Positions 6,318 to 27,055 of a stretch of 62,853 bases of DNA are shown here, piece by piece. Each line of letters starts with the position of its first letter. Position 1 is the first letter of the stretch. The DNA is from Anaerolineae bacterium (GTDB lineage: Bacteria > Chloroflexota > Anaerolineae > S140-20), in assembly GCA_027021705.1 (NCBI GenBank), contig JALUTT010000018.1:1-62853 (forward strand), in the 5' to 3' direction. The notes below the pieces were generated by a model. It saw nothing but the letters and a program-made list of their open reading frames with translations. It was not told where the DNA came from and made no database searches. Made by a program: the position numbers and the translations under genes.

Positions 6318-6452
6318 GGTTTGTGGATTGACGATTGGTGCATGAGGTTGTAAAATTTTCGAAGGGGGGTGACAGACGGTGCTTTCCCCGCAGTCCAGAT
6401 GCATTTGGGGTATCGGATTCGCCGGTCCGCAAGGACTACCATCAACCAGAGA

Positions 6453-7994
6453 ATGAAAGCCATCGCTATGAAACTGAAATCGCTGGCTTGTTACCGTGCC
6501 ATCAAGGCGAGCCTGCGTGCCCGCTTCGCCTTGGGCCTCGCTTTGCCCATCTTTCTGATGATGGCCCTGTTGTCTCTGGTGCACTCTCAACGCGAACGTC
6601 AGCTCTTTGAAGCGCAGCTTCGGCTCTCTTCTTCACAACTGGGTGATATGTTGATGGGGAGCCTGCGCCATGCGATGCTCACGGACGACCGTGCAATGAT
6701 CGGCGAGATCCTGGACAGCGTCGCGCAGATGGACACCATCCAGCGGATCCAGATCATTGACCTGAATGGGGAGGTAAGGGTGGACAGCGCGGGTCGGGAT
6801 GTGGGGAAGCGACATCGCGAAGGTGACCTGGGGTGTAAGGAGTGTCACCGATTCCCTCCCGAAGACCGTCCTCGCACGGCGAAGCTCATCGTCGCCTCGA
6901 ATGTGCTGCGGATTTCCACGCCCATCGCCAACGGGCCGGAGTGTGTCAGGTGTCATTCGGAGAAAAACGGACACCTCGGTGTGTTGCTAGTTGATGCCTC
7001 CCTCGTGGATTTTGAGAGGCATCTGTGGAACGATCTGAAGATCGAGGCGGTGATCACCCTGATGATGACGGTGGTGATCATCCTGGTGGTCTATGCGCTG
7101 GTCCATCGCCTCGTTATACGCCGGATGGTTGCCCTGAGCAGACCCCTGGCGAGGTTGGCTGCAGGGGACTTCTCCACCAGGCTCCCGGTCTCGTCGGGTC
7201 CTCCCGACGAATTGGACCGGTTGGCGGGCACCTTGAACAGGATGGCCGAGGAGTTGGAGCGCCACGTCCGTGAGCAGGAGGAGCACCATCAGTTGCGGGA
7301 ACAGGCGATCATTGAAGAGCGCGAACGGATTGCCCGCGAGCTGCACGACGGAATCGCCCAGCTCCTCGGGTATGTCAATACCAAAGCGATGGCAGTACGG
7401 TTGATGCTTAAGAACCAGAAGCTTGAGGCAGCCGACCAACAACTGTTTCAGCTCGAGGAGGCAGCCCGCCGGCTCTTTGTGGATGTGCGGGAGGCGATCC
7501 TGGGGTTGAGGATTGCGGGGCGTAATAAGGGCGCTAGCCTGGCCGCTACTTTGGAGGAGTTCACCATCCAGTTCAGCCGACTAAGTGGTCTGCCCGTTCA
7601 GCTCACGCTGGCCCCGGCGGTCGAAGACCTCTCGCTTAAGGCCGAGGTCGAACTGCACTTGATACGCATCGTCCAGGAAGCATTGGCCAACGTTCGCAAA
7701 CACGCGATGGCTACCAATGCTCAGGTGCGCTTGGAGGTTCACGATGGGACGCTAGAGCTCGAGGTTAGCGATAACGGTGTCGGCTTCGACCCCAACCATA
7801 TCCAGGCGGACCGCCGGCCCCATTTCGGGCTGTGCACGATGCGCGAGCGAGCCGAGGCGATCGGGGCCGAGTTTCAACTGGACTCTAGGCCGGGCGTAGG
7901 GACCCGCATTGTCGTGCGCCTGCCGCTTGAGAAATCGTCCCAACGATCAATGGTGAAGGAGGATGGACACAATGCGCGTGCTGGTAGCCGATGA
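6453..7994 (+). CDS. HAMP/HisKA_3 sensor histidine kinase with a diheme-c extracytoplasmic domain
   Basis: 2 TM helices; CKECH (6834-6848) and CVRCH (6942-6956) between them; HAMP; ERERIARELHD; QEALANVRKH; DNGVGF. Start uncertain (6453 or 6468). Confidence 0.9.
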   Translation: MKAIAMKLKSLACYRAIKASLRARFALGLALPIFLMMALLSLVHSQRERQLFEAQLRLSSSQLGDMLMGSLRHAMLTDDRAMIGEILDSVAQMDTIQRIQIIDLNGEVRVDSAGRDVGKRHREGDLGCKECHRFPPEDRPRTAKLIVASNVLRISTPIANGPECVRCHSEKNGHLGVLLVDASLVDFERHLWNDLKIEAVITLMMTVVIILVVYALVHRLVIRRMVALSRPLARLAAGDFSTRLPVSSGPPDELDRLAGTLNRMAEELERHVREQEEHHQLREQAIIEERERIARELHDGIAQLLGYVNTKAMAVRLMLKNQKLEAADQQLFQLEEAARRLFVDVREAILGLRIAGRNKGASLAATLEEFTIQFSRLSGLPVQLTLAPAVEDLSLKAEVELHLIRIVQEALANVRKHAMATNAQVRLEVHDGTLELEVSDNGVGFDPNHIQADRRPHFGLCTMRERAEAIGAEFQLDSRPGVGTRIVVRLPLEKSSQRSMVKEDGHNARAGSR

Positions 7995-8634
7995 TCACTC
8001 GCTGTTCCGTGACGGCATTATCAGCTTGTTGGAGGCGGCAGGGTTTGAGGTCGTCGGGCAGGTCGGCGACGGCCAAGCAGCCGTTGAGGCGGTGCTGCGC
8101 CTGCGCCCGGACCTGGTGTTGATGGACATCACAATGCCCCGAATGAGCGGCTTGGAGGCGTTGCGCATCATCAAGCAGATGTTGCCTGAGACCCAGGTCG
8201 TGATGTTGACCGTCTCCGATGACGATGCTGACCTCTTCGAGGCCATCAGATCGGGGGCCAGCGGCTACCTGCTGAAGAGCCTAAATGCTGAGGAGTTCCT
8301 GACGATGTTGAACGGCCTGCAGCGGGGTGAGGCGGCGATGACCCGGAAGACGACGGCCCGCTTGATCCGAGGGCTCACCGAGTCGTCTTCCCGGCCTCAG
8401 CATGATAGGTCGGTGCAGCGCCTGACCGAACGGGAGATAGAGCTTCTCCGGCTGGTGGCCGAGGGGATGTCGAACAAAGCCATCGCCCACGCCCTCTCGG
8501 TCAGCGAGAACACGGTCAAGTACCATATGAAGAACATCCTTCAGAAGCTGAACGCCCAGAACCGGACGGAAGCGGTTACCCACGCCATTCGCGCTGGATT
8601 GCTCGATCTGACCTCTACAGATGATGGCAAGTAG
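7972..8634 (+). CDS. NarL/LuxR family response regulator
   Basis: VADDH, LMDITMP, GYLLK, LTEREIELL..GMSNKAIA; AGGAGG RBS upstream. Confidence 0.95.
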   Translation: MRVLVADDHSLFRDGIISLLEAAGFEVVGQVGDGQAAVEAVLRLRPDLVLMDITMPRMSGLEALRIIKQMLPETQVVMLTVSDDDADLFEAIRSGASGYLLKSLNAEEFLTMLNGLQRGEAAMTRKTTARLIRGLTESSSRPQHDRSVQRLTEREIELLRLVAEGMSNKAIAHALSVSENTVKYHMKNILQKLNAQNRTEAVTHAIRAGLLDLTSTDDGK

Positions 8635-9144: not shown

Positions 9145-9516
9145 GTGCGGATATGCGTTGCCATTCTGTCAAGCCATTCGCTTTTTGCCGAAGGCGTTGT
9201 TAACCGGCTGCGCCAATACTTGCACGATGTGGAATTTGCGATTGTAGACCCCCGGCGGCCGGACGTGATGTCCCAAATCGCTGCTGTCTGCCCCACAGTT
9301 GTACTCCTGGATGTCACGGATCCTGCAACAACTCGGTTTTGCCCTTTGAGCAAGCTTCTACTAACCTTTCCAGAGCTTAAGGTGATACGCTTGGATCAGC
9401 AGCATGAGCAGATTCAGGTGCTGACCAGCGAACGCCGACCAGCCGTGAGGATCCGTGATCTGGTCGAGGTCATCGCTGCCAACGACTCGTCAGGTCCCAA
9501 GCAGGCCCACGTGTGA
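9145..9516 (+). CDS. Stand-alone degenerate receiver (REC-like) domain protein
   Basis: GTG start after GAGGGG; VAILSSHSLFAEGV resembles VLVADDHSLFRDGI of the neighbouring regulator; VVLLD. Confidence 0.55.
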   Translation: MRICVAILSSHSLFAEGVVNRLRQYLHDVEFAIVDPRRPDVMSQIAAVCPTVVLLDVTDPATTRFCPLSKLLLTFPELKVIRLDQQHEQIQVLTSERRPAVRIRDLVEVIAANDSSGPKQAHV

Positions 9517-9644: not shown

Positions 9645-10946
9645 ATGAGGATTGCTTCCCATCGGGATGGGAAGAACTCGATCTCGAAGGGCTGCCGATG
9701 GTTGGGAGTATTGGTTGTCCTGGTGGGGGTTCTGGGGTTGTTCGGATGGGCGTGGCGCGTTGAGGCAAGTGCGCCGTTCAGCCCGGTTTCGGTGGAAGGG
9801 GGTGTAGCCTCGGGGTCGGATCCTGATACCAACTGCCTGATGTGTCACTCGGACCCCGATTTCAAAGGCACCTTTCGGAATGGGGAATTGATCTCTCTGT
9901 ACGTTGACAAAGGAGAATATGAGCAATCGGTTCACGGGCCGGCCGGCTTGGAGTGTCTGGCGTGTCACACGAGCATCAGCCGCTACCCCCACCACGAGGA
10001 GGAGCAGGTCACCTGTGTGGCGTGCCACGGAGAGGCGGTGAGCAAGGGAAACATCACGTATGCGACCTTGCGGGTGCAGCTCCCCTACGCCGACCGTCGG
10101 GAGATGACCCTGACCATCAATGAGGCCTGCCGTTCCTGCCACGAGCGAGAGTTTGAGGTGGCCGGCGACAGCGCCCACGTGAGGGTGCTGCGGGGGGGGA
10201 ATCGGGAGGCCCCTGTCTGTGTGGATTGTCACGGCAGCCACGACATCACGCCGCCCGAGGAGCCCCGGGCCAAGATCTCTCACACCTGTGGGAAGTGCCA
10301 TCGTGCGGTCTACTCGACCTACCGCACCAGCATCCACGGGTCGGCTCTGGACCAGGAGTCAAACCCGGATGTTCCTACCTGTGTGGACTGCCACGGGGTG
10401 CACAGTGTCCGGGGACCGCGTGATGCTGCTTTCCGCAACGATAGCATCGCCATCTGCGGCGAGTGTCACGCCAACAAGGCTCTGATGGACAAGTACGGGA
10501 TCTCCACCAGCGTTTTCCAGACCTATCTGGATGATTTCCACGGTCGTACGGTGGATCTCTTCCGCCGCCAGCACCTGGGTATTCCCAGCAACAAAGCGGT
10601 CTGCTTCGATTGCCACGGCATCCACAATATCCGCCGGGTGGATGATCCCTTGTCCACAGTCTATCCGACCAACCTTCAGCACACCTGTCAGCAGTGCCAT
10701 ACCGATGCCAACATCCGGTTCCCACGGGCGTGGCTTGGTCACTACATTCCCACGCTGGAGGAGACGCCGGCGTTGTACGTCGTCAACCTGGCCTATCGCA
10801 TCTTGATCCCTTTGGTGATCGGTGGCTTCCTCCTCTATATTGGTTTGGATGCTCGCCGGCGGTGGCTTGACAGGCGTCAGATGGTACGCCAGGCCCTCGC
10901 TGAAGTGGAACTCGATGAATATGACTTCACCAACGATTTCTCCTAA
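9645..10946 (+). CDS. Decaheme c-type cytochrome with C-terminal TM helix (CbcL cytochrome c domain-like)
   Basis: Signal peptide; 10 CxxCH (CLMCH, CLACH, CVACH, CRSCH, CVDCH, CGKCH, CVDCH, CGECH, CFDCH, CQQCH); C-terminal TM. Confidence 0.9.
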   Translation: MRIASHRDGKNSISKGCRWLGVLVVLVGVLGLFGWAWRVEASAPFSPVSVEGGVASGSDPDTNCLMCHSDPDFKGTFRNGELISLYVDKGEYEQSVHGPAGLECLACHTSISRYPHHEEEQVTCVACHGEAVSKGNITYATLRVQLPYADRREMTLTINEACRSCHEREFEVAGDSAHVRVLRGGNREAPVCVDCHGSHDITPPEEPRAKISHTCGKCHRAVYSTYRTSIHGSALDQESNPDVPTCVDCHGVHSVRGPRDAAFRNDSIAICGECHANKALMDKYGISTSVFQTYLDDFHGRTVDLFRRQHLGIPSNKAVCFDCHGIHNIRRVDDPLSTVYPTNLQHTCQQCHTDANIRFPRAWLGHYIPTLEETPALYVVNLAYRILIPLVIGGFLLYIGLDARRRWLDRRQMVRQALAEVELDEYDFTNDFS

Positions 10947-11832
10947 CGCAGGTCACGACTACGAGGAAGAGCTGGCCTCGATCGAGCAGATCAAGCGGAA
11001 GGCACGGGCTCGCAAGTTACGAGCCGCTCGATCCCTTGCGGCCCGGATGCAGATTATGCCGGATGGCTCGCGGGTCTTCATCCGCTTCAACCGGACGGAG
11101 CGCTTTGAGCATCAGGTTCTCATCGTGACATTCACCACCCTGGCCGTGACAGGGTTGCTTCAGCGCTACAGCCAGCACCTCGTTGTTGGCTGGATCATCA
11201 ACCTCCTGGGTGGGGTGGAGACGATGCGCACGCTTCATCACTTGGCGGCCTTCGTCTTCATCCTAGAAGCGGTGTACCACACCTGGCGGATTCTGGTGAT
11301 CTGGTTTGTCAAGCGAGAACGCGGTGCGATGTGGCCCTCGCTGCGCGATTTTCGGGACCTGGTGCATATGGTGAAGTTCAACCTGGGTCTGGTGGATCAC
11401 CGACCGGAGTTTGACCGCTTCACCGTCGAGGAGAAGCTGGAGTATTGGGCATTGCTGTGGGGGGCACCCCTGATGATCATCACCGGACTGATGATGTGGT
11501 TCCCGGTCACCGTGACCTCGGTGTTGCCCGGTGATGCAATCCCGGTGGCTCGGGCCTTGCACGGTTGGGAAGCGATTTTGGCTACCCTGTCCATCCTGAT
11601 CTGGCACATGTACCATACCGTCATCAAGGAGCGAAACAGGAGCATCTTCACGGGCATTATGACGGAAAGGGAGATGCAGCACGCGCATCCCTTGGAGTAC
11701 CGGCGCATCCTGGCAGCCTACGCCTATCTTCAGAAGGTCGCTGCAGAGGAGATGCCCACCGAGGAAGGTCCAACCCATCCCCAAAAGATCCTGGCAGGGA
11801 CCGGTTATGAAGCGACCCAGGGTGTTGGATGA
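10915..11832 (+). CDS. Cytochrome b subunit (FdnI/HydC family; CbcL b-domain-like)
   Basis: RFNRTERFEH, LHH, EKLEYW, ITGLMMW, LHGWEAILA, WHMY; four TM helices with His ligands. Confidence 0.88.
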   Translation: MNMTSPTISPNAGHDYEEELASIEQIKRKARARKLRAARSLAARMQIMPDGSRVFIRFNRTERFEHQVLIVTFTTLAVTGLLQRYSQHLVVGWIINLLGGVETMRTLHHLAAFVFILEAVYHTWRILVIWFVKRERGAMWPSLRDFRDLVHMVKFNLGLVDHRPEFDRFTVEEKLEYWALLWGAPLMIITGLMMWFPVTVTSVLPGDAIPVARALHGWEAILATLSILIWHMYHTVIKERNRSIFTGIMTEREMQHAHPLEYRRILAAYAYLQKVAAEEMPTEEGPTHPQKILAGTGYEATQGVG

Positions 11833-13402
11833 ACAGGCCATCGCTGTAGATGAACAGATCATTGTGGACGAGCAGGCCATCGAGGAGTATGGCGAGGCGG
11901 CTTCCGTCCTTGTCGAGCCCCGGCCATACCGGCGTAGGCTCCGATGGCCGAAGGTGGTCATTGACCTCAGCCGTCCCAAGCATCGGCTGAACCTGCTCAT
12001 AGCCCTTGGGGTTCTGCTCCTGGTGGGCCTTGTCTTCCTGTTCAGCGGATACCAAGTCTACACCTACACCGAAAGCGCCGAGTTCTGTGGCACGGTCTGC
12101 CATCCGATGAAGTCGGAGTTCGTCCGTTACGAGCGCTCCCCGCACGCCAATGTCGAGTGCGCCAAGTGCCACATCGGGCCGGGGGCTTCCTTCTTCGTCA
12201 GATCCAAGATTGACGGGCTGAAGCAGGTGGTGGCCGTCCTGGCAAACAGCTACAGCCGCCCTATCAAGAGCCCTGTCTACAACCTGCGTCCTGCCCGGGA
12301 GACGTGTGAGGAGTGCCATACACCCACCCTCTTCCGCGACAACATCATTAAGACGATCGTCCACTACGACAACGATGAGGCCAACACACCGGTCCAGTCC
12401 ACCCTCATCCTAAAGATGGGAGGATGGCGGGAGAGCACAGGGGTCAGCGAAGGCATCCACTGGCACATTACCAACCCGGTCTACTACATCGCTGCCGATG
12501 AACAGCGACAGGTAATCCTGTGGGTGGGCGTAGAGCAGGAAGATGGGACGCTGAAGGAGTTCTATGCCCGAGATATGCTCAATATGGCTTGGACCGAGTT
12601 TGTGGAGGAAGCGCGTGCCAGGGGAGAGATCCGCAAGATGGATTGTATAGACTGCCATAACCGCACCGCCCACTTCATCCCTCCGCCAGAGGTGGTTGTG
12701 GATGAGGCCATCAGCGTAGGGAAGATCTCCAGGAAACTGCCCTACATTCGGGCCAAAGCGGTTGAGGTGCTGTCGGTAGAGTACGCCAGCGAGGCCGAGG
12801 CCTATGCTGCCATAGAAGGGCTTCTAGACTTCTACCGGGTAGGGTACCCGGAAGTGTACACCAAGTATCGCGCTGAGCTGGATGCGGCCATCGAGGAGCT
12901 CAAGCGGATCTACAGCAGCACCAACTTCCCCGATATGCGGTTGAGTTGGCGGACCAACCCCAACAACGAACGCCACACGCCTTTCCTGGGATGCTTCCGC
13001 TGCCACGATGGCAAACACGTCAACGTGGACAAATCGGGGAATGAGGTGGAGGTTATCAGCGTTAAGTGCAATCTTTGCCACACCGTCCCCATTGTCGGGC
13101 GGGGCGACGATATGCTCGTAGAGGCCCCGGTCATCGTCGGGTCTGTACCGCCCTCCCATTCAGACTTCCGATGGACCATCGAACACCGTTCGGTGACCGA
13201 GGAGGAGAGGCAGGAGTGCTACCAGTGCCACGGACAGGGCTTCTGTAGCAACAGCGTGTGTCACAATCTCTCGCATCCTCCGGATATGCTCTTCACCCAT
13301 GCCGAGGAGTATCGCAAGACGGGGAATCAGGTCTGCTACACCTGTCACCAGGATATTCTGTGTAGCCGTTGCCATCCAGGCGGCATAGTGTCCAATCCTT
13401 AG
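11807..13402 (+). CDS. imcH: ImcH-like NapC/NirT family membrane multiheme cytochrome c
   Basis: TES..FCGTVCH, SPHA.VEC..CH.GPGA, NLRPARETCEECH, GIHWHI, MDCIDCHNR, GCFRCHDGKH match recalled Geobacter ImcH motifs; 8 CxxCH + CX3CH + CX4CH. Confidence 0.8.
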   Translation: MKRPRVLDEQAIAVDEQIIVDEQAIEEYGEAASVLVEPRPYRRRLRWPKVVIDLSRPKHRLNLLIALGVLLLVGLVFLFSGYQVYTYTESAEFCGTVCHPMKSEFVRYERSPHANVECAKCHIGPGASFFVRSKIDGLKQVVAVLANSYSRPIKSPVYNLRPARETCEECHTPTLFRDNIIKTIVHYDNDEANTPVQSTLILKMGGWRESTGVSEGIHWHITNPVYYIAADEQRQVILWVGVEQEDGTLKEFYARDMLNMAWTEFVEEARARGEIRKMDCIDCHNRTAHFIPPPEVVVDEAISVGKISRKLPYIRAKAVEVLSVEYASEAEAYAAIEGLLDFYRVGYPEVYTKYRAELDAAIEELKRIYSSTNFPDMRLSWRTNPNNERHTPFLGCFRCHDGKHVNVDKSGNEVEVISVKCNLCHTVPIVGRGDDMLVEAPVIVGSVPPSHSDFRWTIEHRSVTEEERQECYQCHGQGFCSNSVCHNLSHPPDMLFTHAEEYRKTGNQVCYTCHQDILCSRCHPGGIVSNP

Positions 13403-13425: not shown

Positions 13426-14388
13426 ATGCCTACGCTCAACGGGTCCACGCAGAAAGGCCGAAGCTTTAACACGCAAGAGATCCAGCGGGCCATCTGGATC
13501 GTGCTGACGGCTCTGATTGTCAGTGTCATACTCTTCGGCGGCTACTACTACTGGGATCGCTATGTTCGCCTGAAGGACAAGTCGCCGATGGAGATGGACA
13601 TCGAGCGGCTGGAGCAGGCGATCCGTGAAGATCCTCAGAATCCCGATGCCCGGGTCGCCCTGGCCGAGTATTACCTGCGCAGCGGGATGCCCCAGAAGGC
13701 CCTGGAGCAGGCGAATCAGGTGTTGAAGGTTTACCCGGAGCACGAGGGAGCGTTGCTCATCGCAGGGATTGCCTACGTTCGCCTCAACCAGCCCGAGGCT
13801 TCCCTGGCCCCCCTGGAGAAGTTCGTGGAACTGCGCAAGGATCGCCCGATGGCCGGTGTGGATACTGCCCTGGAGACGGCGTACTACTTCCTCGGCGAGA
13901 GCTACGTCAAGTTGAACCGGCCTGAGGATGCGATCCCTGTGCTGGAAGCAGCGCTGAAGATCACTCCGACGGATGCCGATGCGCTCTATCAGGCGGGTGT
14001 GGCTTATCAGGCTACCGGTGAGTTGGAGACGGCTCTGGAGCGCTATCATAGGGCTGTGCGCCTCGTCCCCGACTTCCTCGAGGCCTACCAAGGCATGGTC
14101 GAGAGCTATTCTGCCTTAAACCAGCCGGATTACGTGGTGTACGCTCAGGGGATGGAAGCTTTCTGTCGGAAGGATTATCAGACGGCTCAGGACTACCTGG
14201 AACAGGCCACCGAGGCGCTGCCAGACTTTGCCCCGGCCTTTCTGGGCCTGGGGTTGACCTATGAGCAGATGGGAGATTTAGAAGCCGCGCTGGCAGCCGT
14301 GGAGCGGGCCCTGGAGTTGCAGCCCAATGACTTCGCCATCCTGCAGGCGCGTGGTCGTATCCAAGCCGCACTGGACTCAAAGAAGTGA
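13426..14388 (+). CDS. Membrane-anchored TPR protein
   Basis: N-terminal TM helix followed by many TPR repeats (e.g. AYYFLGESY, ALYQAGVAY, AFLGLGLTY). Confidence 0.9.
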   Translation: MPTLNGSTQKGRSFNTQEIQRAIWIVLTALIVSVILFGGYYYWDRYVRLKDKSPMEMDIERLEQAIREDPQNPDARVALAEYYLRSGMPQKALEQANQVLKVYPEHEGALLIAGIAYVRLNQPEASLAPLEKFVELRKDRPMAGVDTALETAYYFLGESYVKLNRPEDAIPVLEAALKITPTDADALYQAGVAYQATGELETALERYHRAVRLVPDFLEAYQGMVESYSALNQPDYVVYAQGMEAFCRKDYQTAQDYLEQATEALPDFAPAFLGLGLTYEQMGDLEAALAAVERALELQPNDFAILQARGRIQAALDSKK

Positions 14389-14394
14389 GCGCAT

Positions 14395-15606
14395 ATGTCG
14401 AACATAGACGCCGGGAACCAGGTTTCTGAGCACGACCTCAGCCTTATCGAAGAAGAAGAGCGGGCGGAGAAACGACGCCGGTGGTTGCTCCTGCTGCTCT
14501 TGCTGCTGCTGACGTTGCTGGCTTGTGTGCTCTTGCTCTTCATCCGCTATCTGCGGCAGCCGGAGCCGTTGCCCGAGATGATCCCGCTGCCGGTGGACGT
14601 GAACTACCCGCCCCATTACTTGTTCTCGATCTACGGAGTGGACAAGCCGGTCGGTGTGGCCTACTCGCTGAGGAATGACCGCATCTATGTCGCGGAAACC
14701 GGCGGCAAACGTCTGGTGAAGATCTTCGACCGGGATGGCAACCCGCTGGGCTCCTTCGCGCCTCCACGCACGATGCCCGGCGAGCGGTCGCCGGTCTACC
14801 TGGCTGTTGACGGAGCCGGCCGTGTCTTCGTCACCGATCGCCTTCAGCACGCGATATTCGTATACGACGAGAACGGGACCTTTCTAGATACCATCCTGGG
14901 GCCGGACCTGACGCTGAGCGAATATGTGCTCAAGCACGTGAACAACCTGCGACCCGATGCCACCTTCGCCTACAACCAGTTCGAGCACGTGGTCTACTAC
15001 AAAAGCCCCGGAGAACCGGAGCGGACGTTGCCCACACCCGAGCCGGCGATGTGGGCTCCGCTGGGGATCCGATTCGATCGCACCGGTAGGCTGCTGTTCA
15101 CGGATGTGAGACAGGAACGCAATGCTGTGTACTTGATCTCGGCCGATGCCTTCTCGCCCTCCTCTTGGCGGAATTTCGATCCGCCTGTGATCTCCTTCGG
15201 TTCGACGGGGCAGGGAGATGGGCAGTTCCTCTTCCCCAACTCGGCGGTCGCCGATTCCCAGGGACGGATCTACGTCACCGATGGGAACAATGGCCGCATC
15301 TCTGTGTGGGATGAGAAGGGGCAGTTCCTGTTCCACTTCGGTGGAGGTTCTGGTGAAGGTGCGCTCAGCCTGCCTCGCGGTGCGGCCATAGACGAGCGGG
15401 ATCGGCTTTACGTGGTGGATGCTGTGGGGCAGAACGTGAAGGTCTACGATGTTTCGGGACCGGAGCCTGACTTCCTCTTCGCCTTCGGCGACTGGGGAAT
15501 GGGTGATGGGCAGTTCAACTATCCCAACGACATCGCTTTGGATCGCTACGGGCGATTGTACATCGCCGATCGAGAGAACAATCGTATCCAGGTTTGGTCT
15601 TACTAA
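14395..15606 (+). CDS. Membrane-anchored NHL-repeat beta-propeller protein
   Basis: Poly-Leu TM; GDGQFLFP..GRIYVTD, LPRGAAID..LYVVD, GDGQFNYPNDIA..LYIADRENNRIQ. Confidence 0.9.
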   Translation: MSNIDAGNQVSEHDLSLIEEEERAEKRRRWLLLLLLLLLTLLACVLLLFIRYLRQPEPLPEMIPLPVDVNYPPHYLFSIYGVDKPVGVAYSLRNDRIYVAETGGKRLVKIFDRDGNPLGSFAPPRTMPGERSPVYLAVDGAGRVFVTDRLQHAIFVYDENGTFLDTILGPDLTLSEYVLKHVNNLRPDATFAYNQFEHVVYYKSPGEPERTLPTPEPAMWAPLGIRFDRTGRLLFTDVRQERNAVYLISADAFSPSSWRNFDPPVISFGSTGQGDGQFLFPNSAVADSQGRIYVTDGNNGRISVWDEKGQFLFHFGGGSGEGALSLPRGAAIDERDRLYVVDAVGQNVKVYDVSGPEPDFLFAFGDWGMGDGQFNYPNDIALDRYGRLYIADRENNRIQVWSY

Positions 15607-19243: not shown

Positions 19244-22200
19244 TTGAAACGCAACGATGGGAACGGACGGACCAGCCTCAGGGAAAAGATGATGAAGCAT
19301 CCTCGCAACGGCACTCCATGGCAACCACGTACTCACAACAAGGAGCGGATCCGGCTTCTCAGAACGCTCCGCCGGAGCCACGCTCTCACCCGAATGGCCG
19401 TCCTCTCCCTGACCATCCTGGGACTGTACTTCTCCCTCCTCGTCGGTGGGGTGCCGACCATTGGGGCCGAGCAGGCCCCCACGGAGACCCCGACCCCTGA
19501 CATGGGTACGGTGACGGGGGTGCCCACCAGCGCTCCCTTGGACGAGGAAGACGGCACGACTACCGCCACGCCGACGGTGACCTCCACGCCGTTCATCACC
19601 CCGACGGCGACGCCGGCCTGGACCGCCACACCTCCGGTGACCCCCACGGAGGTCATCACGCCGACGGTGGTGTCTTCGACCCCTGTCCTCCCGACGGTCA
19701 CGCCCACCGAGCCCTTTACCCTGACGGTCCCCCCCTCAACGCCGGACACCCCAACCCCTGTGCCGACGGAGCCTATTACCCTGACGGCAACCCCTTGGCC
19801 GGTGGAATCGCCGTCGGCGACTCCAGTCTCCAGCCCCTCCGTTCCGGTGACCTCGACGGCGACGCCCACCGAGACGGCTGAGCCCACAGCATCGGTCACG
19901 CCAACGGTCCCGCCTGCTCCGTCGGCCACGCCGACGATCACCCCTACGCCTGCGGTCACCGTCACCGTGACCGTGACGCCCACGGAGACCACGGTGCCGG
20001 AGGTCTCGCCTACCGTCACGGTCACCCCGATCGTTACGCCAACGCCGGTGGCGTTCGAGGGTAGCTACGTGCCGGATGAGGTGCTCGTCCGCTTCCTGCC
20101 GTTGCCGCTCCCAGGGTTTTCGGCCACGACAGCGGCGGCCCTCGCCGAGACTCATAAGATCGAGGTGGAAGGCACTCTGAGCCGCCTGGGCGTGTGGGTG
20201 ATGAAGGTCCCACCGGGCCAAGTCGAGCAGGTTGTCTCGGACCTCCGGCAGGATCCGAGGGTCCTGTTCGCTGAACCTAACTACATCGCCCGAGCCTACC
20301 TCACCCCCGACGATCCCAGTTGGCCGCTGCAGTCCTACCTGTCGAACATCCAGGCCCCTCAGGCGTGGGATGTAACGACGGGATCGCCGGAGGTGGTTAT
20401 CGCGGTAGTGGACACCGGTGTGGACCTCACCCATCCCGACTTGGTGAACAAGATCTGGCACAACCTGGGGGAGATGGGGCTGGACGCCGAGGGCAACGAC
20501 CGGCGCACCAACGGCGTGGACGACGACGGCAACGGCTACGTGGACGACTGGGTGGGGTGGAACACCGTTGCCGGCACGGGTGATGTGCAGGATGACCACG
20601 GTCACGGCACCTATGTGGCCGGCGTGGCCGCTGCCGATACCAACAATGGGCAGGGGATCGCCGGGGTCTCCTGGGGGGCGCGGATTATGCCGGTAAAGGT
20701 GCTGGATAGCACCGGTTTCGGTACCTATGCTCAAGTGGCTGCGGGCATCATCTACGCCACCGACCAAGGGGCGCGGATCATCAATCTGAGCCTCGGGGGC
20801 ACGGAGCCCAGCGCCCTGCTCGAGGCTGCCATCGGGTATGCTGCCGCCCACGGCGTCACCGTGATCGCGGCCACCGGCGATTCGGGGACCTCGGGCGTGA
20901 GCTATCCGGCGGCCTATCCCAGCGTGATTGCCGTCGGGGCGACCGATGGTAACAATCAGATCGCCCCCTTCTCCACCTTCGGCGACGCGGTGGACCTGGT
21001 AGCCCCTGGGGTGGACGTCTACTCCACCTATCCGGGCGGTTACGCCCAGTTCTCGGGTACCTCGGTGGCTGCGGCCCACGTCTCGGGGGTGGCTGCCCTC
21101 TTGGCCAGCCTGCCGGCCTTCGATACCCCGGACAAGATCCGGGCGGCGCTGGAGGCGACGGCCCTCGACTTGGGGGAGCCGGGTTGGGATCCCTATTACG
21201 GGTTTGGTTTGGTGCAGGCCTACGATGCATTGACCCAGCCGCCCCCGGTTGGCCCGACGCCCACGCCCACCCCCACGGCGACGCCGGGGCCATCGCCAAC
21301 CCCGACGGCGACGCCGACGCGAGGGCCGACGCCCACCCCGTCGGGGGGTGGTGGTGTACGCGCTTTGGTCACCGAAGAGCTGTGGGCCACGGCACAGGAC
21401 TGTGATTATCCCATCACCGATCCGGCGAACAGCATTGACCTGGCCTTCAACGATCTGGTGGCCTCCTGCACGGGGGATTTTGGGAGGGACAGGACGAGTT
21501 GGACCTATACCGCCTTCCAAGATACGACGCTGGCTACCATCGTGATGGTAACGCTGGACGTGCGCTTCTACATGACGGGCTGGGTGGATGATCGCATTGA
21601 TCTGGAGATCTTCAACGGGGATCGCTGGTACCGGCTGGCCCGTTTCGAAGGTGGGGAGGAAACGCCGCCGGGGACGTTGACCACCCTTTCCTACGATGTC
21701 TCATCGTGGTTCACCACACCCGCCGAGGTCAATGCGGCTCAGTTGCGCTTCCGAGGGCGCAGGAGGAACGGCGGTACGGATACCATCACCATCTACCTGG
21801 ATGAGGCTCGCCTCAATGCCAGTGATGTGATTCCCACACCCACGCCGGCGCCGCCCCTACCGACGCCGACATCCCCGCCACCGGCGCCCACCGACGTGCC
21901 TATTGCCGGGGATCCTCACGTGGATTACAGCCCGACGACCGACAGTTGCGCGGCCTGCCACCGTTCCCACACCGCCTACGGCATGGTGCTGCGCCAGGCG
22001 TGGCCGGAAGAGGATCTCTGCTTCGGCTGCCATACCGATGGCGGCACGGGCACCAACGTCCAGCCGGCCTTCACCAGCTACACCAATACTTCCACCCGCA
22101 TCTTCAAGCACGACATCGCCGCCACCAATGGTGTCCATCGGATCGGGCAGACCACCGGTGCCGACTTCGGAGGAACCAGCCGGCACGTGGAGTGTGAGGA

Positions 22201-23065
22201 CTGCCACGAGCCCCACGAGGCCACCCGTGGTCCGTCCGATGCCCCGATGCTCCAGCGGGAGATGAACTACGCCTCGGGTGTGGATCCGGTCTGGACAGGG
22301 CCCGGTGCGCCGACCTCCTACGTCTGGCTGCAGCAGGCCGAGCGGGAGTATCAGGTCTGCTTCAAGTGCCACTCCAGCTTCACCACCCTCCCCACCTACG
22401 TACCTGACGGCTGGGATGGTAGCCAGTATGTGGCCGATGGCCTGCGCAAGCTGACCAGCACCGATCCCAACCAGGTGCTGGACAGCCGGGATATGGCCCA
22501 GGAGTTCAACCCTTACAACGCCAGCTTCCATCCGGTGGTGGCCCAAGGTCGGAACCAGTCCATCCCGGCGGGGAGTTTCGTCACCGGCTGGTCGCAGACC
22601 AGCATGGTCTACTGCACCGACTGCCACAGCAGTGCCGACCCCACTCAGGGGGATGGTCCTCACGGTTCTCCTCTGTTGCACCTCCTTACCGGCAATGGTG
22701 GGCAGACGAACTACGTCACAGCACCGGGGGGCTGGGTGACCATCACCAGCGATTGGGTCTGCTTCAAGTGCCACCGGTACGAAACCTACGTTTCAGGCAC
22801 CGACCCTTCCACCAACACCAACTTCCGCAGGGGCAACCGTAACCTGCACGAATTGCACTCCGACCGACGTAACGTGCCCGATGCCTCGTGCTATGCCTGC
22901 CACGACTCCCACGGCAGCGAGCAACTGCACCTGATCAACTTCGACGCGAGCTGGGGTGGGGGCATCACTTTCCTGAATGGCCGGAACAGCCAGACAGCCT
23001 GGACCGGCAACAGCTGCTACCTCGTCTGTCACGGCAGAGATCACTCCAACATCACGTATCCCTGA
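19244..23065 (+). CDS. S8 subtilase / octaheme cytochrome c fusion with Pro/Thr linkers
   Basis: Hydrophobic N-terminal segment; ~200 aa P/T tract; prodomain (YVPDEVLVRF..AEPNY); VVDTG, HGT, SGTS triad; C-terminal 7 CxxCH + CYLVCH. Start uncertain. Confidence 0.85.
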   Translation: MKRNDGNGRTSLREKMMKHPRNGTPWQPRTHNKERIRLLRTLRRSHALTRMAVLSLTILGLYFSLLVGGVPTIGAEQAPTETPTPDMGTVTGVPTSAPLDEEDGTTTATPTVTSTPFITPTATPAWTATPPVTPTEVITPTVVSSTPVLPTVTPTEPFTLTVPPSTPDTPTPVPTEPITLTATPWPVESPSATPVSSPSVPVTSTATPTETAEPTASVTPTVPPAPSATPTITPTPAVTVTVTVTPTETTVPEVSPTVTVTPIVTPTPVAFEGSYVPDEVLVRFLPLPLPGFSATTAAALAETHKIEVEGTLSRLGVWVMKVPPGQVEQVVSDLRQDPRVLFAEPNYIARAYLTPDDPSWPLQSYLSNIQAPQAWDVTTGSPEVVIAVVDTGVDLTHPDLVNKIWHNLGEMGLDAEGNDRRTNGVDDDGNGYVDDWVGWNTVAGTGDVQDDHGHGTYVAGVAAADTNNGQGIAGVSWGARIMPVKVLDSTGFGTYAQVAAGIIYATDQGARIINLSLGGTEPSALLEAAIGYAAAHGVTVIAATGDSGTSGVSYPAAYPSVIAVGATDGNNQIAPFSTFGDAVDLVAPGVDVYSTYPGGYAQFSGTSVAAAHVSGVAALLASLPAFDTPDKIRAALEATALDLGEPGWDPYYGFGLVQAYDALTQPPPVGPTPTPTPTATPGPSPTPTATPTRGPTPTPSGGGGVRALVTEELWATAQDCDYPITDPANSIDLAFNDLVASCTGDFGRDRTSWTYTAFQDTTLATIVMVTLDVRFYMTGWVDDRIDLEIFNGDRWYRLARFEGGEETPPGTLTTLSYDVSSWFTTPAEVNAAQLRFRGRRRNGGTDTITIYLDEARLNASDVIPTPTPAPPLPTPTSPPPAPTDVPIAGDPHVDYSPTTDSCAACHRSHTAYGMVLRQAWPEEDLCFGCHTDGGTGTNVQPAFTSYTNTSTRIFKHDIAATNGVHRIGQTTGADFGGTSRHVECEDCHEPHEATRGPSDAPMLQREMNYASGVDPVWTGPGAPTSYVWLQQAEREYQVCFKCHSSFTTLPTYVPDGWDGSQYVADGLRKLTSTDPNQVLDSRDMAQEFNPYNASFHPVVAQGRNQSIPAGSFVTGWSQTSMVYCTDCHSSADPTQGDGPHGSPLLHLLTGNGGQTNYVTAPGGWVTITSDWVCFKCHRYETYVSGTDPSTNTNFRRGNRNLHELHSDRRNVPDASCYACHDSHGSEQLHLINFDASWGGGITFLNGRNSQTAWTGNSCYLVCHGRDHSNITYP

Positions 23066-23223: not shown

Positions 23224-26200
23224 ATGGTGGTTCCTATGGTGACTTCTGCGGTTTTCCTCACGCCTCGACGGCACATCCGGTCTCGGGGGAGGAGGCAGAT
23301 CAGACAGGGGCTGGGTCGGGGATTGCACCTTCTCGCTCGGGCCATCCTGTTGATGGCGCTGGTGACGACGATCATCCCGGTTCCAGGGATCTATGCGGCC
23401 ACCTTCGACGTGAATGACCCAAATGATGCCGGGGATACCTCTCCGGGCGACGGAATCTGTGACAGCGACGAGGCTTCCCCCGGCCCCCAGTGTACGTTGC
23501 GCGCCGCCATCGAAGAGGCCAACGCCCTGCCGGGTCCTGATACCATCAATCTGGCTGCGGCCGGCCCCTACTACCTGACCGAAGGCGTGCTCACGGTCAC
23601 CAGCGAGATCACCCTGAACGGCAACGGAGAGACCATCAGTGCAGGTGGGCTCTCCCGTATCTTTTTGGTGGAAGGGGATGGCGTGCTCTCGTTGGACGGC
23701 GTGACCCTTCGGGATGGTGTGGGGGATGAAGGTGGCGCGATCCACGTTCGACCGGGGGGAACGCTGTACATCTCGAACAGCGCCATCGTCAACAACGCGG
23801 CGGTCAACACGGAGTCCAGCTCTGGCGGCGGCATCAACAACTGGGGGGGCACGGTCACCATCGTCAACACCACCATCTCCGGCAACCGGGCCAACGCCGG
23901 CGGTGGTGGCATTGCGAACCTGACCGCTTACGAGGGGGGCAGCTTTGTTTACGGCACGATCACCCTGACCCACGTGACGATCACCGACAACATCGCCGAT
24001 TTCGACGGGTCCGATGGCAACAGTCACGATGGTGGGGGGATCTTCACCTTTGGGATGCTCAATGTCGGGAGTTCCATCATCGCCGGCAATGTGGACAATA
24101 GCCCCGCCTTAGGCACGGTCTACCCCGATTGTGTCAACTGGTATTACCTCACTACCCAGCAGTACAACCTGATCGGGGATAACACCGGCTGTGATGTACC
24201 GTACCCCGCCGACGACCCGACCAGCTACTTCCCGCCGGGCACCCCCAATGACAACCACGACTTCGTCGGTACCGGCGACGCGCCCCTAGACCCGCTGCTC
24301 GGCGATCTGACCGGCAACCCGGCCTATCACCCGCCCCTGGCCGGCAGCCTGGCCATAGACCAGATCCCCGCGGATGCCTGCTCGGTCACCAGAGATCAGA
24401 TCGGGACGCCTCGCCCCCAGGGGACGGCCTGCGACATCGGTGCTGTGGAGGTCGCCTCCCAGGTGGACCTGAGCATCACCAAGACGGTCACCCCCACCCT
24501 CCCCGTCGCGCCGGGCCAGAGGGTCACCTACACCCTCACCTTCAGCAACCAGGGCGAGGGCATCGCCCCTGAGGTCGTCATCACCGACATCGTTCCGGTG
24601 ACCCTGACCCACGTCAGCGTCATCAGCAGCGGCGTGACCGTGACGGATACCGGGGTGAGGCCGGGCTTTGTGTGGGGCGTGGAGGACCTCTCGCCGGGCG
24701 AGGGCGGGATCATCACCATCAGCGGTCGGATCAGCGAGAGCCTGATTGCCGCGACCATCTTCACCAACACCGCCGTCATCGCTACCAGCGCTCAGGATTC
24801 TGACGCCGACAACAACGAGGCCGCTGTGGGGGTGACGGTGATCCCCCACGAGTCCGAGTGGTCCGACTTTTGCCTTCTCCAGCGGATGGAGATCACGGGC
24901 ATCGGGATGGGAGATCGTTACGGTGCCATCAACCCCCAGACTATCTCCCTGTCCGATCCGGATGGGGTGAATTGGCTGTTGGTCCAGGTCGCCGGACGAC
25001 GAGCCTTTGGGGCACCGATCCCGGACCAGGTGGTCCTGACTCCCGATCGGCCCCCGTCGTTCACCCTCTACCAGCCTCACCGCAGCAGCCCACACGGCTA
25101 CACCTTTGAGGCGAACCTGCGCCCGACGAACCAGATCACGGCCTTCGTCAGCAACGTGGGGGAGGACTACAAGACGCCTCGGGGCCTGGTGCTGTACAGC
25201 AAGCGGGCTACTGTGGACCGCTGGACCTCCGTCGGCAGGACCGCCAACAAGTTCATCTACCGAGGATGGAAGGGCTCCCACACTGAGGTGCTGACCTTCC
25301 CGCCGTTGCAGAGCGCGACGGACCTCTTCGCCACCGCCGTGGTCATTGACAACGATGATGATGCCCGCCCGATTGTGGTCACGGCGGAGGCCGGAGGGGT
25401 GACCGACACCGTGAGCATCCTCGGTTCCTCGGACGGTCCGGGTCTGAACATCGTTCGCCTGGCCCTCCCCCAGGTACCCACCGGAACCCAGCAGATCAGC
25501 ATCACGGTCCAGTCGCCGACCAGCAACGGCGATTCGATGGTCCTGACGGGGGTAGACGTTAGCTTCTCGTGCGAGAGGCCAACCGGTGCGGTGGTGCGCG
25601 TCGAGCCCTCACCGGCGACGATCCCCCTGGGGGCGACCCGCTTGTTGACCGTGACGGTGGACCCCGGCTCGGCCCAGGTCAACGGTGTGCAGATCCACGG
25701 TCAGGTGGACCCCGCATACCTGCACCTGGTGGATGTCCGGCCCAGTGGGACCCTGACGGTGGAGCTGGACCCCGTGGCCTTTGACCCCACGACGGGGGAG
25801 TTCCGCTACGGGGCGAGCCTCCTCGACGGCGTCATCACCGAGCCCTTCCCGGTGCTGACCCTTGAGGTCCAGGCGGTAGCTCTCACCGATGGAACCTGGG
25901 TTAAGTTCCTCGACGAGCCCCCGCCGACCGACGTCAGCGGTCCCGACGGCAGCGTGATGAGCCAGGCCCAAGATGGGTTGGTCATCGTGACGCAGGCTCC
26001 TGTCCTCCGTGGATCGGTGGATATGCAGGGCCGTCCTCCCAAGCCTGCACCCCCCTGGGCGATCCCGTTGACGGTTTGGCTCTCACCGCCGGGGGATACG
26101 ACCCCGATCTACACCGCGACCGTCACCACCAACCAATATGGCGAATTCACCCTTGCCCTGGGCGATCTCCCCTCTGGTCCGTACGATGTCCGGTTGAAGG

Positions 26201-26985
26201 GCAACCATACCTTGCGCAACCTGGCTCCGGCGGTCCCTCTGGAGGTGGGGGATAACCGCTACTTCTTCGGCACGCTGTTGGAAGGGGATGTCGAGACGGT
26301 AGGCACCTTCAACTGGGTATGGTGGCCCGATGTCTGGGTGATGGCCGGCTCCTTTGGCCGATGTCGAGGGTCGCCGGGCTTCGTGGCCAACGCGGACCTG
26401 GACGAGAGTGGATGCGTGTGGTTACCCGACTTTGGCCTGCTGGCGGGCAACTTCGGCAAGGCCGGAGACATCGTCGTCACTCCCACGGTCACCTCCCAAG
26501 CGGTGTTGCGCCCGGCGGACGGTGGTGGACCGTGGTTGCTGTTCAATGCCGAAGAGGTGCAGGTTGCGGTCGGTGAGGTGGTGACCCTATCCCTCGATCT
26601 GGACCCCGAAGATCGGCCGACCAACGGTGTGATGGCCCAACTGCGCTTCGACCCCGATCTGGTCGAGGTGATGGACGTCACACTCACCGACCGCCTGCCC
26701 TTGGTCTTGATGGAACCGGTGGTGGACGACGAGCAGGGGACGGTGCGCTTTGCGGCGGGGGTTCTTGGTCGGACCCTCACCGAGCGGTTCACCGTTGCTC
26801 GCCTCACGGTAAAGGTGAAGGCAGCGACCACCGGGACGGCCATCGCGTTGGTGGATCTGCCCACCGCGACCGACGTCAGCGGTCCCGAGGGGCGCATTCA
26901 AGTGAAATGGAAAGGGGTGACGCTCAGGACGGAGGCCCAGGCATCGCCGGAGCATCTCCTCTACCTGCCCCTTGTGACCCGGTAG
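23224..26985 (+). CDS. CSLREA / choice-of-anchor Q / DUF11 / cohesin / dockerin-like surface protein
   Basis: CTLRAAIEEAN; GGGI beta-helix repeats; DQIGTPRPQGTACDIGAVE; DLSITK..VTYTLTFSN; two cohesin-like domains; ADLDESG.V...DF; C-terminal YLPLVTR. Confidence 0.8.
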   Translation: MVVPMVTSAVFLTPRRHIRSRGRRQIRQGLGRGLHLLARAILLMALVTTIIPVPGIYAATFDVNDPNDAGDTSPGDGICDSDEASPGPQCTLRAAIEEANALPGPDTINLAAAGPYYLTEGVLTVTSEITLNGNGETISAGGLSRIFLVEGDGVLSLDGVTLRDGVGDEGGAIHVRPGGTLYISNSAIVNNAAVNTESSSGGGINNWGGTVTIVNTTISGNRANAGGGGIANLTAYEGGSFVYGTITLTHVTITDNIADFDGSDGNSHDGGGIFTFGMLNVGSSIIAGNVDNSPALGTVYPDCVNWYYLTTQQYNLIGDNTGCDVPYPADDPTSYFPPGTPNDNHDFVGTGDAPLDPLLGDLTGNPAYHPPLAGSLAIDQIPADACSVTRDQIGTPRPQGTACDIGAVEVASQVDLSITKTVTPTLPVAPGQRVTYTLTFSNQGEGIAPEVVITDIVPVTLTHVSVISSGVTVTDTGVRPGFVWGVEDLSPGEGGIITISGRISESLIAATIFTNTAVIATSAQDSDADNNEAAVGVTVIPHESEWSDFCLLQRMEITGIGMGDRYGAINPQTISLSDPDGVNWLLVQVAGRRAFGAPIPDQVVLTPDRPPSFTLYQPHRSSPHGYTFEANLRPTNQITAFVSNVGEDYKTPRGLVLYSKRATVDRWTSVGRTANKFIYRGWKGSHTEVLTFPPLQSATDLFATAVVIDNDDDARPIVVTAEAGGVTDTVSILGSSDGPGLNIVRLALPQVPTGTQQISITVQSPTSNGDSMVLTGVDVSFSCERPTGAVVRVEPSPATIPLGATRLLTVTVDPGSAQVNGVQIHGQVDPAYLHLVDVRPSGTLTVELDPVAFDPTTGEFRYGASLLDGVITEPFPVLTLEVQAVALTDGTWVKFLDEPPPTDVSGPDGSVMSQAQDGLVIVTQAPVLRGSVDMQGRPPKPAPPWAIPLTVWLSPPGDTTPIYTATVTTNQYGEFTLALGDLPSGPYDVRLKGNHTLRNLAPAVPLEVGDNRYFFGTLLEGDVETVGTFNWVWWPDVWVMAGSFGRCRGSPGFVANADLDESGCVWLPDFGLLAGNFGKAGDIVVTPTVTSQAVLRPADGGGPWLLFNAEEVQVAVGEVVTLSLDLDPEDRPTNGVMAQLRFDPDLVEVMDVTLTDRLPLVLMEPVVDDEQGTVRFAAGVLGRTLTERFTVARLTVKVKAATTGTAIALVDLPTATDVSGPEGRIQVKWKGVTLRTEAQASPEHLLYLPLVTR

Positions 26986-27024
26986 CCTGCTCGAAGCCGA
27001 TCAGCCGTCTGCGCTCTTGCGAAG

Positions 27025-27055
27025 GGGGCGACCTCACGGTCGCCCCTGGCTTTTT
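27025..27055 (+). terminator. Hairpin / likely intrinsic terminator ending the cluster
   Basis: GGGGCGACC-TCAC-GGTCGCCCC followed by tggcTTTTT. Confidence 0.55.

Follow-up and report, generated by a model that had tools for sequence, protein, structure and literature searches.

Why would a bacterium build a subtilisin-like protease and a multihaem cytochrome into a single chain? The question is raised by an open reading frame (ORF) on the forward strand of an Anaerolineae genome (Chloroflexota; GenBank assembly GCA_027021705.1), at positions 19244..23065 of contig JALUTT010000018.1, whose 62,853 nucleotides make up the window analysed here. Its product, P0001, carries an S8 protease in front of an octaheme cytochrome. 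The mechanisms of extracellular electron transfer are known only from a small number of diderm model bacteria and some archaea. In sediments, aquifers and digesters, Chloroflexota of the class Anaerolineae occur in abundance; they are rich in multihaem cytochromes, and no electron conduit of the phylum has been worked out in the literature that we searched. An earlier note on this DNA took P0001 for a maturation protease joined to the cap, anchor or nucleator of a wire made of OmcS-like subunits. Here, we propose an answer to which we give even chances: P0001 would serve as the tethered end-piece in an electron-export system whose gene cluster is conserved in Chloroflexota. The argument starts from the architecture of the protein, the conservation of its active site, its position at the end of the operon, the modularity of its protease and the homology of an N-terminal cytochrome segment, all of which are read directly from the sequences.

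The ORF is open without interruption and encodes 1273 residues counted from a TTG codon. The likely start is the ATG at nucleotide 19289 (M16); a public protein, P0006 (1258 residues), begins at that residue and is identical to P0001 from there on. Behind a basic tail follows a hydrophobic helix (residues 51-75; 19394..19468), either a signal anchor or a signal peptide, in which the top Kyte-Doolittle 19-mer begins at residue 52 with a mean of 2.09; such a hydrophobic N-terminal stretch is found in 57 of the 63 S8 forms with at least 60 residues ahead of the prodomain. A stalk rich in proline (23%) and threonine (31%) comes next (residues 76-268; 19469..20047), then a fervidolysin-type subtilase prodomain (20054..20299; PF22148 at residues 271-346, E 1.7e-10) and an S8A subtilase catalytic domain (20300..21238). 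The latter is delimited by the PF00082 profile (residues 383-655, E 7.3e-58, 196.6 bits against a cut-off of 21.8) and by alignment with thermitase, which, with the motif positions, places the catalytic triad at D390, H454 and S607.

Thermitase (1thm, E 8.5e-59) and Ak.1 protease (1dbi, E 9.1e-57) are the closest solved relatives of this domain in the PDB. They share with P0001 the Asp-His-Ser order of the triad and the position of the mature N-terminus, since T354 of P0001 aligns with residue 2 of mature thermitase; an autoprocessing site is therefore predicted near Y352/L353. Unlike these two enzymes, P0001 has a long stalk ahead of its prodomain, some 600 residues of jelly roll and cytochrome behind the protease, and an insert of about 32 residues between Asp and His (residues ~405-438; 20456-20557). 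The insert contains DDDGNGYVDD, which resembles a calcium-binding loop.

Behind the protease, a 39-residue linker of proline, threonine and glycine (residues 666-704; 21239..21355) leads to a beta-sandwich (residues ~709-861; 21368..21826). This domain has neither a Pfam match nor a PDB sequence match, and in the ESM Atlas it finds only unnamed clusters below 0.9. An AlphaFold2 (AF2) model of residues 690-1273, built from 96 aligned sequences, has a mean predicted local distance difference test score (pLDDT) of 77.6 and a predicted template-modelling score (pTM) of 0.65, and folds the domain into a jelly roll at a pLDDT above 90. Foldseek places family 4 carbohydrate-binding modules (CBM4) first among PDB structures (3p6b, E 2.8e-5; 1gu3, E 4.4e-5; template-modelling (TM) scores of 0.45-0.51 on the target), so the domain may be CBM4-like by fold, and jelly rolls of the Eph, MAM and Cry domain types match it about equally well.

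A conserved proline-rich linker (21827..21922; ..PTPTxPxPAPTxxPxxx[DE]PH) then precedes the C-terminal cytochrome. Among 115 sequences it keeps T at -8 in 94, P at -5 in 101 and PH in all, independent of the module upstream. The cytochrome part opens with GDPHVDYSPTTDSCAACHRSHTA at residue 889 and forms a module (21923..23062; PF09699, PF22113) with seven CXXCH motifs and one CX3CH motif, CYLVCH, at residues 1258-1263 (23015-23032). The name octaheme is thus correct if CX3CH binds haem. In two alignments, of 15 and of 96 rows, every row keeps all eight sites. The profile of MtrC/MtrF domains II/IV, PF22113, reaches 39.2 bits against a cut-off of 30 in three stretches (best at 899-1045), a likeness that would fit a terminal, outward-facing role. 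A PDB sequence search with the octaheme part gave nothing usable and no OmcZ chain, the ESM Atlas gave generic Paired_CXXCH clusters only, and there was no cytochrome in the best 50 fold matches of the beta-plus-octaheme model, a list filled by jelly-roll matches. The order proposed in the earlier note, from proline- and threonine-rich stalk through prodomain, S8 protease and beta domain to octaheme cytochrome, is thereby confirmed.

Could the fusion be an artefact of assembly, as the same note allowed? The domain-architecture search says that it is real. Searched among proteins of 700-2228 residues, the cytochrome part finds 275 relatives, PF00082 is carried by 83 of the best 120, and the public protein identical to P0001 has already been mentioned. 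Relatives that bear a name are called 'S8 family serine peptidase' or 'CXXCH cytochrome' and come from Chloroflexi/Anaerolineae metagenome-assembled genomes (MAGs). When the window's own domains were mapped onto the best 120 relatives, the commonest order was that of P0001 itself, prodomain-S8-beta-cytochrome (27), followed by S8-beta-cytochrome (23), prodomain-S8-cytochrome (22), beta-beta-cytochrome (22), beta-cytochrome (9), a cytochrome with another front (6), S8-cytochrome (5) and other arrangements (6).

A wider search of the cytochrome part against 1.84 billion representatives gave 1683, 846 and 85 matches at E <= 1e-3, 1e-10 and 1e-30. The best 150 of these are 91-3976 residues long, and 12 of them carry S8. 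Since no more than 20 residues separate the end of the match from the C-terminus in 85 of the 150, and more than 100 residues follow the match in only 7, the octaheme is, by its place in these sequences, a C-terminal module borne by many kinds of N-terminal part. Minimal members (L007, L009, L011, L023 and L025) consist of a basic tail, one membrane helix, a stalk of proline, threonine and alanine, and the octaheme. The octaheme, not S8, is the invariant part of the family.

The company kept by this gene is equally constant. Directly upstream of P0001, on the same strand, lie three genes for small secreted cytochromes: the hexaheme P0003 (15755..16783), the heptaheme P0004 (16870..17928) and the heptaheme P0005 (18139..19203), the last being 66% identical to P0004. 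With one genome scanned per species, 300 relatives came up, from which 77 loci were kept: 52 of Chloroflexota type (L001-L040, L056, L065-L075), 23 Bacteroidota-like and 2 of Desulforhopalus. Synteny was counted in the 35 of the 52 Chloroflexota-type loci whose octaheme gene has 3 kb or more of sequence upstream. At least one gene of the P0003-5 family lies directly upstream in 33 of them, the exceptions being L010 and the fragment L035; an NHL gene is present in 32 and, by a script filter, a TPR gene in 30, with genes for a NapC-type cytochrome or for a decaheme and a cytochrome b further upstream. Family members in the loci have six CXXCH motifs in 35 ORFs, seven in 8 and other numbers in 5. 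S8 lies inside the octaheme gene in 18 of the 52 loci, and all 17 of these with upstream sequence have the small cytochromes, so that the fusion does not occur mostly without cytochrome neighbours, a possibility that the earlier note had raised against itself. The octaheme gene is the fixed last member of the cytochrome operon.

This bears on the plainest alternative, in which P0001 is an ordinary secreted feeding protease with a cytochrome as passenger and no dedicated role in a conduit. The broad extracellular proteases thermitase and Ak.1 are its closest solved relatives, and a search with the prodomain and S8 shows that 33 of the 120 closest relatives lack PF09699 and bear CAP, NIDO, FN3 or SLT domains. 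Against this stand the multihaem domains in the other 87 of the 120, the constant position of the gene as the last of a cytochrome operon, and the fact that the octaheme rather than S8 is the invariant part. We regard this alternative as very improbable.

How, then, is the octaheme related to its small neighbours? In P0003-5, a typical signal peptide leads straight into a motif of the form (A)DNGPHGGY...CAGCHRAHTA, and the chains stop at the last haem (..CHGK or ..CHQK before the stop codon). By local BLAST, the first 81 residues of the octaheme match P0003 at 47% identity (E 4e-13), P0005 at 52% (4.7e-11) and P0004 at 46% (2.5e-10); the same 81 residues have no match in the window's decaheme (E 0.05) or NapC-type octaheme (E 0.5). 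Because those two cytochromes score so poorly, the likeness to P0003-5 exceeds general multihaem likeness. In BLASTP against P0004, the cytochrome part aligns over its first ~87 residues only (37% identity, E 6e-10), with nothing coherent beyond. The earlier reading of a paralogous start that diverges after the second haem therefore holds, and the alignment is specific to P0003-5.

The same reading went further and called the neighbours OmcS-like, and this part fails: neither sequence nor fold likens them to OmcS, OmcE or OmcZ. With phmmer against all PDB chains at E <= 1, P0004 has 2 matches and P0003 has 3, none of them a nanowire cytochrome. The neighbours have 6-7 haems in ~320 mature residues, and an AF2 model of P0004, built without haems from 109 sequences (pLDDT 81.9, pTM 0.81), includes a beta-sheet region. 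None of the fold matches of this model in the PDB reaches E <= 0.001: OmcE comes first (7tfs, E 2.9, TM 0.17/0.26), and an undecahaem cytochrome (6qvm) is also matched without significance (E 6.9). As the model is free of haem, P0004 may still bear a distant likeness to nanowire cytochromes in the arrangement of its haems. Of the 1049 matches to P0004, all are unnamed or called 'cytochrome c3 family', and the few source names among them are Chloroflexi/Anaerolineae. The neighbours are not all hexahemes, as the differing haem numbers of P0003, P0004 and P0005 make plain.

The contact itself was modelled with an octaheme piece of 401 residues (alignment A1) and residues 25-352 of P0004 (alignment A2). 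This model scores an ipSAE of 0.82 (runs of 0.83, 0.79 and 0.82), against 0.00 for the best of three controls. The mark used for docking is reached by 116 of 157 solved complexes and by 2 of 215 mismatched pairs, figures that are rough here since our own alignments were used. Contacts agree between runs to at least 91%, and the partner has a pLDDT of at least 81. On the side of the octaheme, the interface comprises piece residues 17, 19, 23-32 and 34-45 (G-x-P...YSPTTDSCAA-HRSHTAYGMVLR), which is the shared motif; on that of P0004 it comprises residues 242-263, 313-323 and 340-352, all in the C-terminal part. The invariant His263 of P0004 lies in the model beside piece residues 36-37, which adjoin the first CXXCH. 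As the 16 linker residues ahead of the motif stay outside the modelled interface, a tethered octaheme could dock uncut. The AF2 monomers have low confidence in the corresponding N-terminal segments (residues 20-40 and 47-53 of P0004; 210-228 of the beta-plus-cytochrome model), which is expected if the segment orders only on a partner. Together, the modelling supports docking of the shared N-terminal motif on the C-terminal face of the heptaheme P0004. Of the cap or anchor for which multimer modelling had been suggested, the docking contact thus has the support of a model, and the filament to be capped stays hypothetical.

What does the protease contribute? Its Asp/His/Ser triad is intact in all 60 S8-bearing rows of alignment A3 (19 further flagged rows are S8-less proteins misaligned in those columns), and the P0001-type protease is for this reason surely meant to be active. 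S8 is also missing from 37 of the best 120 octaheme relatives. A careful maximum-likelihood tree was made of 119 octaheme domains, 82 with S8, 35 without S8 and with an N-terminal hydrophobic stretch, and 2 uncounted. Presence of S8 changes 11 times on it (bootstrap range 10-11), at least 8 of these changes being forced by well-supported branches; a quick tree gave 13. The clearest single case is P0044 (915 residues, no S8) beside P0050 (1302 residues, S8): identity between the two is 81% in the N-terminal 497 residues and 84% in the C-terminal 430, and their sole difference is a clean indel of the prodomain-S8 cassette. In none of the 77 loci is there a separate S8 ORF at a distance of up to 10 kb from the octaheme gene. 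Among the loci with at least 3 kb upstream, 19 of 35 lack S8, and 17 of these 19 still carry P0003-5-type genes.

This distribution has to be set beside the one system in which a subtilase is known to mature a nanowire. In Geobacter sulfurreducens, the 50-kDa octaheme precursor of OmcZ is cut to 30 kDa by the subtilase OzpA, which triggers assembly (PMC9473688; bioRxiv 10.64898/2026.07.18.739370); OzpA also matures itself (PMC9473688; PMC13748539; bioRxiv 10.64898/2026.07.18.739370), and OmcZ has one atypical haem motif, CX14CH (bioRxiv 10.64898/2026.07.18.739370). In logic, OmcZ/OzpA is the nearest known system, as in both cases a subtilase is genetically coupled to an octaheme with one atypical motif, plus a beta-sandwich domain. 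In contrast to OzpA and OmcZ, P0001 joins protease and cytochrome in one chain with the protease N-terminal, and the protease is optional within the octaheme family. The neighbours are not precursors, the non-haem domains being confined to P0001 itself; there is no OmcZ homologue among the PDB sequence matches of the octaheme, P0004 or P0003, and the cluster showed no gene for a prolyl isomerase.

Could S8 nevertheless be an OzpA-like maturase that cleaves the neighbours, or a precursor of them, to yield an OmcS-style wire which the fused octaheme caps or nucleates? The precedent of a subtilase by nanowire cytochromes (PMC9473688; PMC13748539; bioRxiv 10.64898/2026.07.18.739370), the conserved triad, the presence of small cytochromes in all S8 loci with upstream sequence and the modelled docking, which fits a cap, speak for it. 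However, P0003-5 run from signal peptide to last haem with the motif right behind the signal peptide, and have no pro-region comparable to the part that OzpA takes off OmcZ, so there is nothing to remove. Their lack of likeness to OmcS, OmcE and OmcZ, the S8-less loci that keep P0003-5-type genes and have no other S8 nearby, the roughly 11 gains and losses and the clean cassette indel between proteins 81-84% identical likewise speak against it. A maturase of this kind seems improbable to us. The OzpA-style maturation of subunits in the earlier note is not borne out, nor is its one-chain maturation protease as a necessary part: the absence of a pro-region in P0003-5, the absence of a separate S8 within 10 kb and the repeated changes speak against a required role, and S8 is, as the family sequences have it, an optional cassette and not a required maturase of P0003-5.

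A related possibility turns the OmcZ scheme around. S8 would cleave the linker of its own chain, or that of another copy, immediately ahead of GDPH and free the octaheme to assemble with itself or with partners, the jelly roll taking the role of the inhibitory beta domains of OmcZ. The parts are suggestive: eight haems with one atypical motif as in OmcZ, cytochrome, beta-sandwich and subtilase together, a conserved pre-domain linker, and mature neighbours that begin 4-5 residues ahead of the same PH motif. However, the octaheme has no sequence likeness to OmcZ, and linker and octaheme also occur in protease-free members, where the module must act tethered. Residues before G17 leave the modelled interface, so that a free N-terminus is unneeded. 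Subtilisins, moreover, cleave poorly inside proline-rich sequence. We consider this possibility quite improbable.

We return to P0001 as a tethered end-piece. The protein would be exported with a single N-terminal membrane helix, and its stalk of ~190 residues would keep it off the membrane. Electrons would pass from the quinol pool to the NapC/NirT-type octaheme and/or the cytochrome b with the decaheme, on to the hexa- and heptahemes, and from these to the octaheme end-piece, held on its long, probably glycosylated stalk, and outward. On the forward strand, the window has at ~9.0-27.0 kb, in this order, a small ORF (9013-9516), a decaheme cytochrome (9645..10946), a cytochrome b561-type membrane protein (10822..11832), the NapC/NirT-type octaheme, a probable membrane quinol dehydrogenase conserved in many loci (11807..13402), a TPR protein (13426..14388), an NHL-repeat beta-propeller protein conserved in the cluster (14395..15606), P0003, P0004, P0005, P0001 and P0002. 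The TPR protein may aid haem attachment, for example at the invariant CX3CH, as a possible dedicated helper, a role suggested by its weak match to CcmH/CycH-type TPR (E 2.9e-11), and the NHL propeller may act as a scaffold for the complex. Other electron-uptake clusters, too, have NHL and TPR genes beside those for cytochromes (bioRxiv 10.1101/2022.05.06.490989).

Within this end-piece model, the most likely role of S8, judged from how subtilases mature, is self-processing at about Y352/L353, which would sever S8, jelly roll and octaheme from the membrane-anchored stalk. For this specific self-release we see roughly one chance in three. A second possible role is the trimming of envelope proteins. 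After release, the CBM-like jelly roll would retain the piece on wall or sheath glycan.

Several points weigh against the end-piece. The cut at the prodomain would lose the tether in exactly those forms that bear S8, so that anchor and protease sit uneasily together, and everything said of the targets of the protease is inference. The CBM likeness of the jelly roll is weak (TM 0.45-0.53, E ~1e-5), and the comparison of the octaheme fold with OmcZ and other cytochromes is a weak one, as the jelly roll swamps the fold matches. The 37 S8-less relatives include some proteins from short contigs, 35 of them having an N-terminal hydrophobic stretch. The complex model contains no haems, and its alignments are unpaired. 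Both chains share a homologous N-terminal segment, so that the contact could be an intramolecular one of P0003-5 transferred to the other chain; and the interface is no better conserved than the rest of either protein (permutation p 0.27 for the octaheme, 0.12 for P0004).

These last points open the way to a reading without a stable complex. The octaheme would be a free-swinging terminal reductase displayed on a stalk, in the manner of MtrC or OmcA, with transient contact to P0003-5, and the modelled interface would be an intramolecular contact of P0003-5 mis-assigned to the homologous segment of another chain. The match to PF22113 above its cut-off agrees with this, as do the background conservation of the interface, the homology that makes mis-assignment possible and the presence of the module on many unrelated scaffolds, including giant Bacteroidota proteins rich in PKD repeats without P0003-5-type neighbours. 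What tells against it is the high and reproducible docking score with controls at zero, the strict adjacency of P0003-5-type genes in 33 of 35 Chloroflexota loci, and the failure of AF2 to give the N-terminal segment of P0004 a confident place on its own body. We hold it to be unlikely.

The docking of end-piece and heptaheme can also be extended to the neighbours themselves. In this joint reading, which we think rather unlikely, P0003-5 form a new, independent family of Chloroflexota cytochrome polymers, joined head to tail and ended by the S8-octaheme as terminator. The N-terminal di-haem segment of one subunit would insert into the C-terminal face of the next, where the invariant His (H263 in P0004) would reach over the interface to complete a haem. 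The tethered S8-octaheme would have the insertion motif and no acceptor face, thereby ending the chain, and the protease cassette would free or extend the wire by cleaving the tether or the envelope around it. In predicted contact, the nearest known system is OmcS/OmcE, where a His of the adjacent subunit completes the interfacial haem (PMC12954529). As in those nanowires, P0003-5 are small secreted multihaem cytochromes encoded as tandem paralogues, and the placement of the invariant His of P0004 beside a haem motif of the octaheme is a like hint from the haem-free model. They have no sequence or fold match to OmcS or OmcE, and a polymer of P0003-5 is hypothetical.

For the end-piece, MtrC, OmcA and MtrF offer a further comparison. 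The PF22113 match is shared with them, and so would be the display on the outside as the last redox protein of the conduit. P0001 differs in having eight haems and not ten, no four-domain layout with beta-barrel domains I/III, no MtrAB-type porin partner, and a membrane helix with a proline- and threonine-rich stalk in place of an outer-membrane lipid anchor. Multihaem conduits through the cell wall have been described for the monoderm metal reducers Carboxydothermus ferrireducens and Thermincola (PMC7829351; PMC5808234), and the cultured Chloroflexi isolate Ardenticatena maritima has the surface seven-haem protein ARMA_0580 (PMC5808234). As in these cases, the cytochromes of our cluster would move electrons across a thick envelope; the accessible parts of those reports mention no protease fusion. 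A survey of Chloroflexi genomes found Anaerolinea rich in multihaem cytochromes (bioRxiv 10.1101/2021.08.23.457424). Our literature searches found no paper on an S8-multihaem fusion or on this cluster. What is new here is the architecture of the conduit, conserved and so far undescribed, with an optional protease built covalently into it.

The locus supplies a widely conserved list of parts, namely a sensor kinase that bears haem, quinol oxidisers in the membrane, helpers of the TPR and NHL types, one to three secreted hexa- or heptahemes and a tethered octaheme end-piece. It also offers a specific contact to test, that between a hexa- or heptaheme and the end-piece. If the head-to-tail contact joins the small cytochromes too, they would make up a new family of nanowires that comes with its own terminator.

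The modules in front of the octaheme give some idea of where the chain may work. Long S8-octaheme forms of ~1440-1660 residues (P0027 among them) and the S8-less P0044 type open with a domain of ~430 residues, which in P0027 is collinear with P0399, an S8 protein without cytochrome. P0399 matches the SLT lytic transglycosylase family PF01464 at 27.3 bits against a cut-off of 21.3, and the SLT reading of the front domain rests on this match and the collinearity. In P0044 itself, the domain stays below the SLT cut-off (14.2 bits against 21.3, E 0.034), and its PDB sequence search was empty. In different members of the family, the octaheme thus goes together with a protease, a domain that probably cuts peptidoglycan, jelly rolls of CBM-like fold (one or two), or spacers of the FN3, PKD or Ig type. 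As such modules are typical of proteins active within or upon the cell envelope, they suggest a theme of envelope remodelling; plug-in protease and sister SLT-like domain may hint at how the chain threads through a thick envelope or leaves it.

The ends of the operon are less sharply drawn. Upstream, on the same strand, a histidine kinase (HAMP, HisKA_3, HATPase) with two CXXCH motifs near its N-terminus is followed by a LuxR-type response regulator (6369..8634). The pair lies upstream of the cluster in L030, L036 and L037 and, in L021, downstream of the octaheme gene on the opposite strand; the kinase may be a haem-based redox sensor that controls the operon. Downstream, P0002 (1253 residues; 23224-26985, forward strand) is a surface protein with CSLREA, choice-of-anchor Q and DUF11 signatures. 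It is conserved in this place only in the closest locus, L001, and probably stands outside the core cluster. A scan of the window for promoters and terminators gave counts no higher than shuffled sequence, and its two strongest terminator-like hairpins, at 8655-8681 and 27024-27047, are a hint of operon ends from a scan not above chance.

Some smaller observations concern the cluster and its relatives. The longest ORFs of the decaheme (9645-10946) and cytochrome b (10822-11832) genes overlap by 125 nt, and the true start of the cytochrome b gene probably lies further downstream. Some genomes have two copies of the cluster with different end-pieces: L012 and L017 lie on the same 1.7-Mb contig, the former of the prodomain-S8-cytochrome and the latter of the beta-cytochrome type, and L020 and L034 come from the same MAG. 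The Bacteroidota-type loci (L041-L055, L057-L064) encode giant proteins of 1200-2300 residues rich in PKD_6 repeats, which end in a module matching octaheme residues ~50-396 and hence without the first haem motif; NHL-repeat genes lie nearby, and P0003-5-type genes were not found in these loci. Elsewhere in the window, on the reverse strand at 34451-36839, a protein with a GmrSD-type restriction endonuclease N-domain adjoins a class I methyltransferase; the two are likely defence genes unrelated to P0001.

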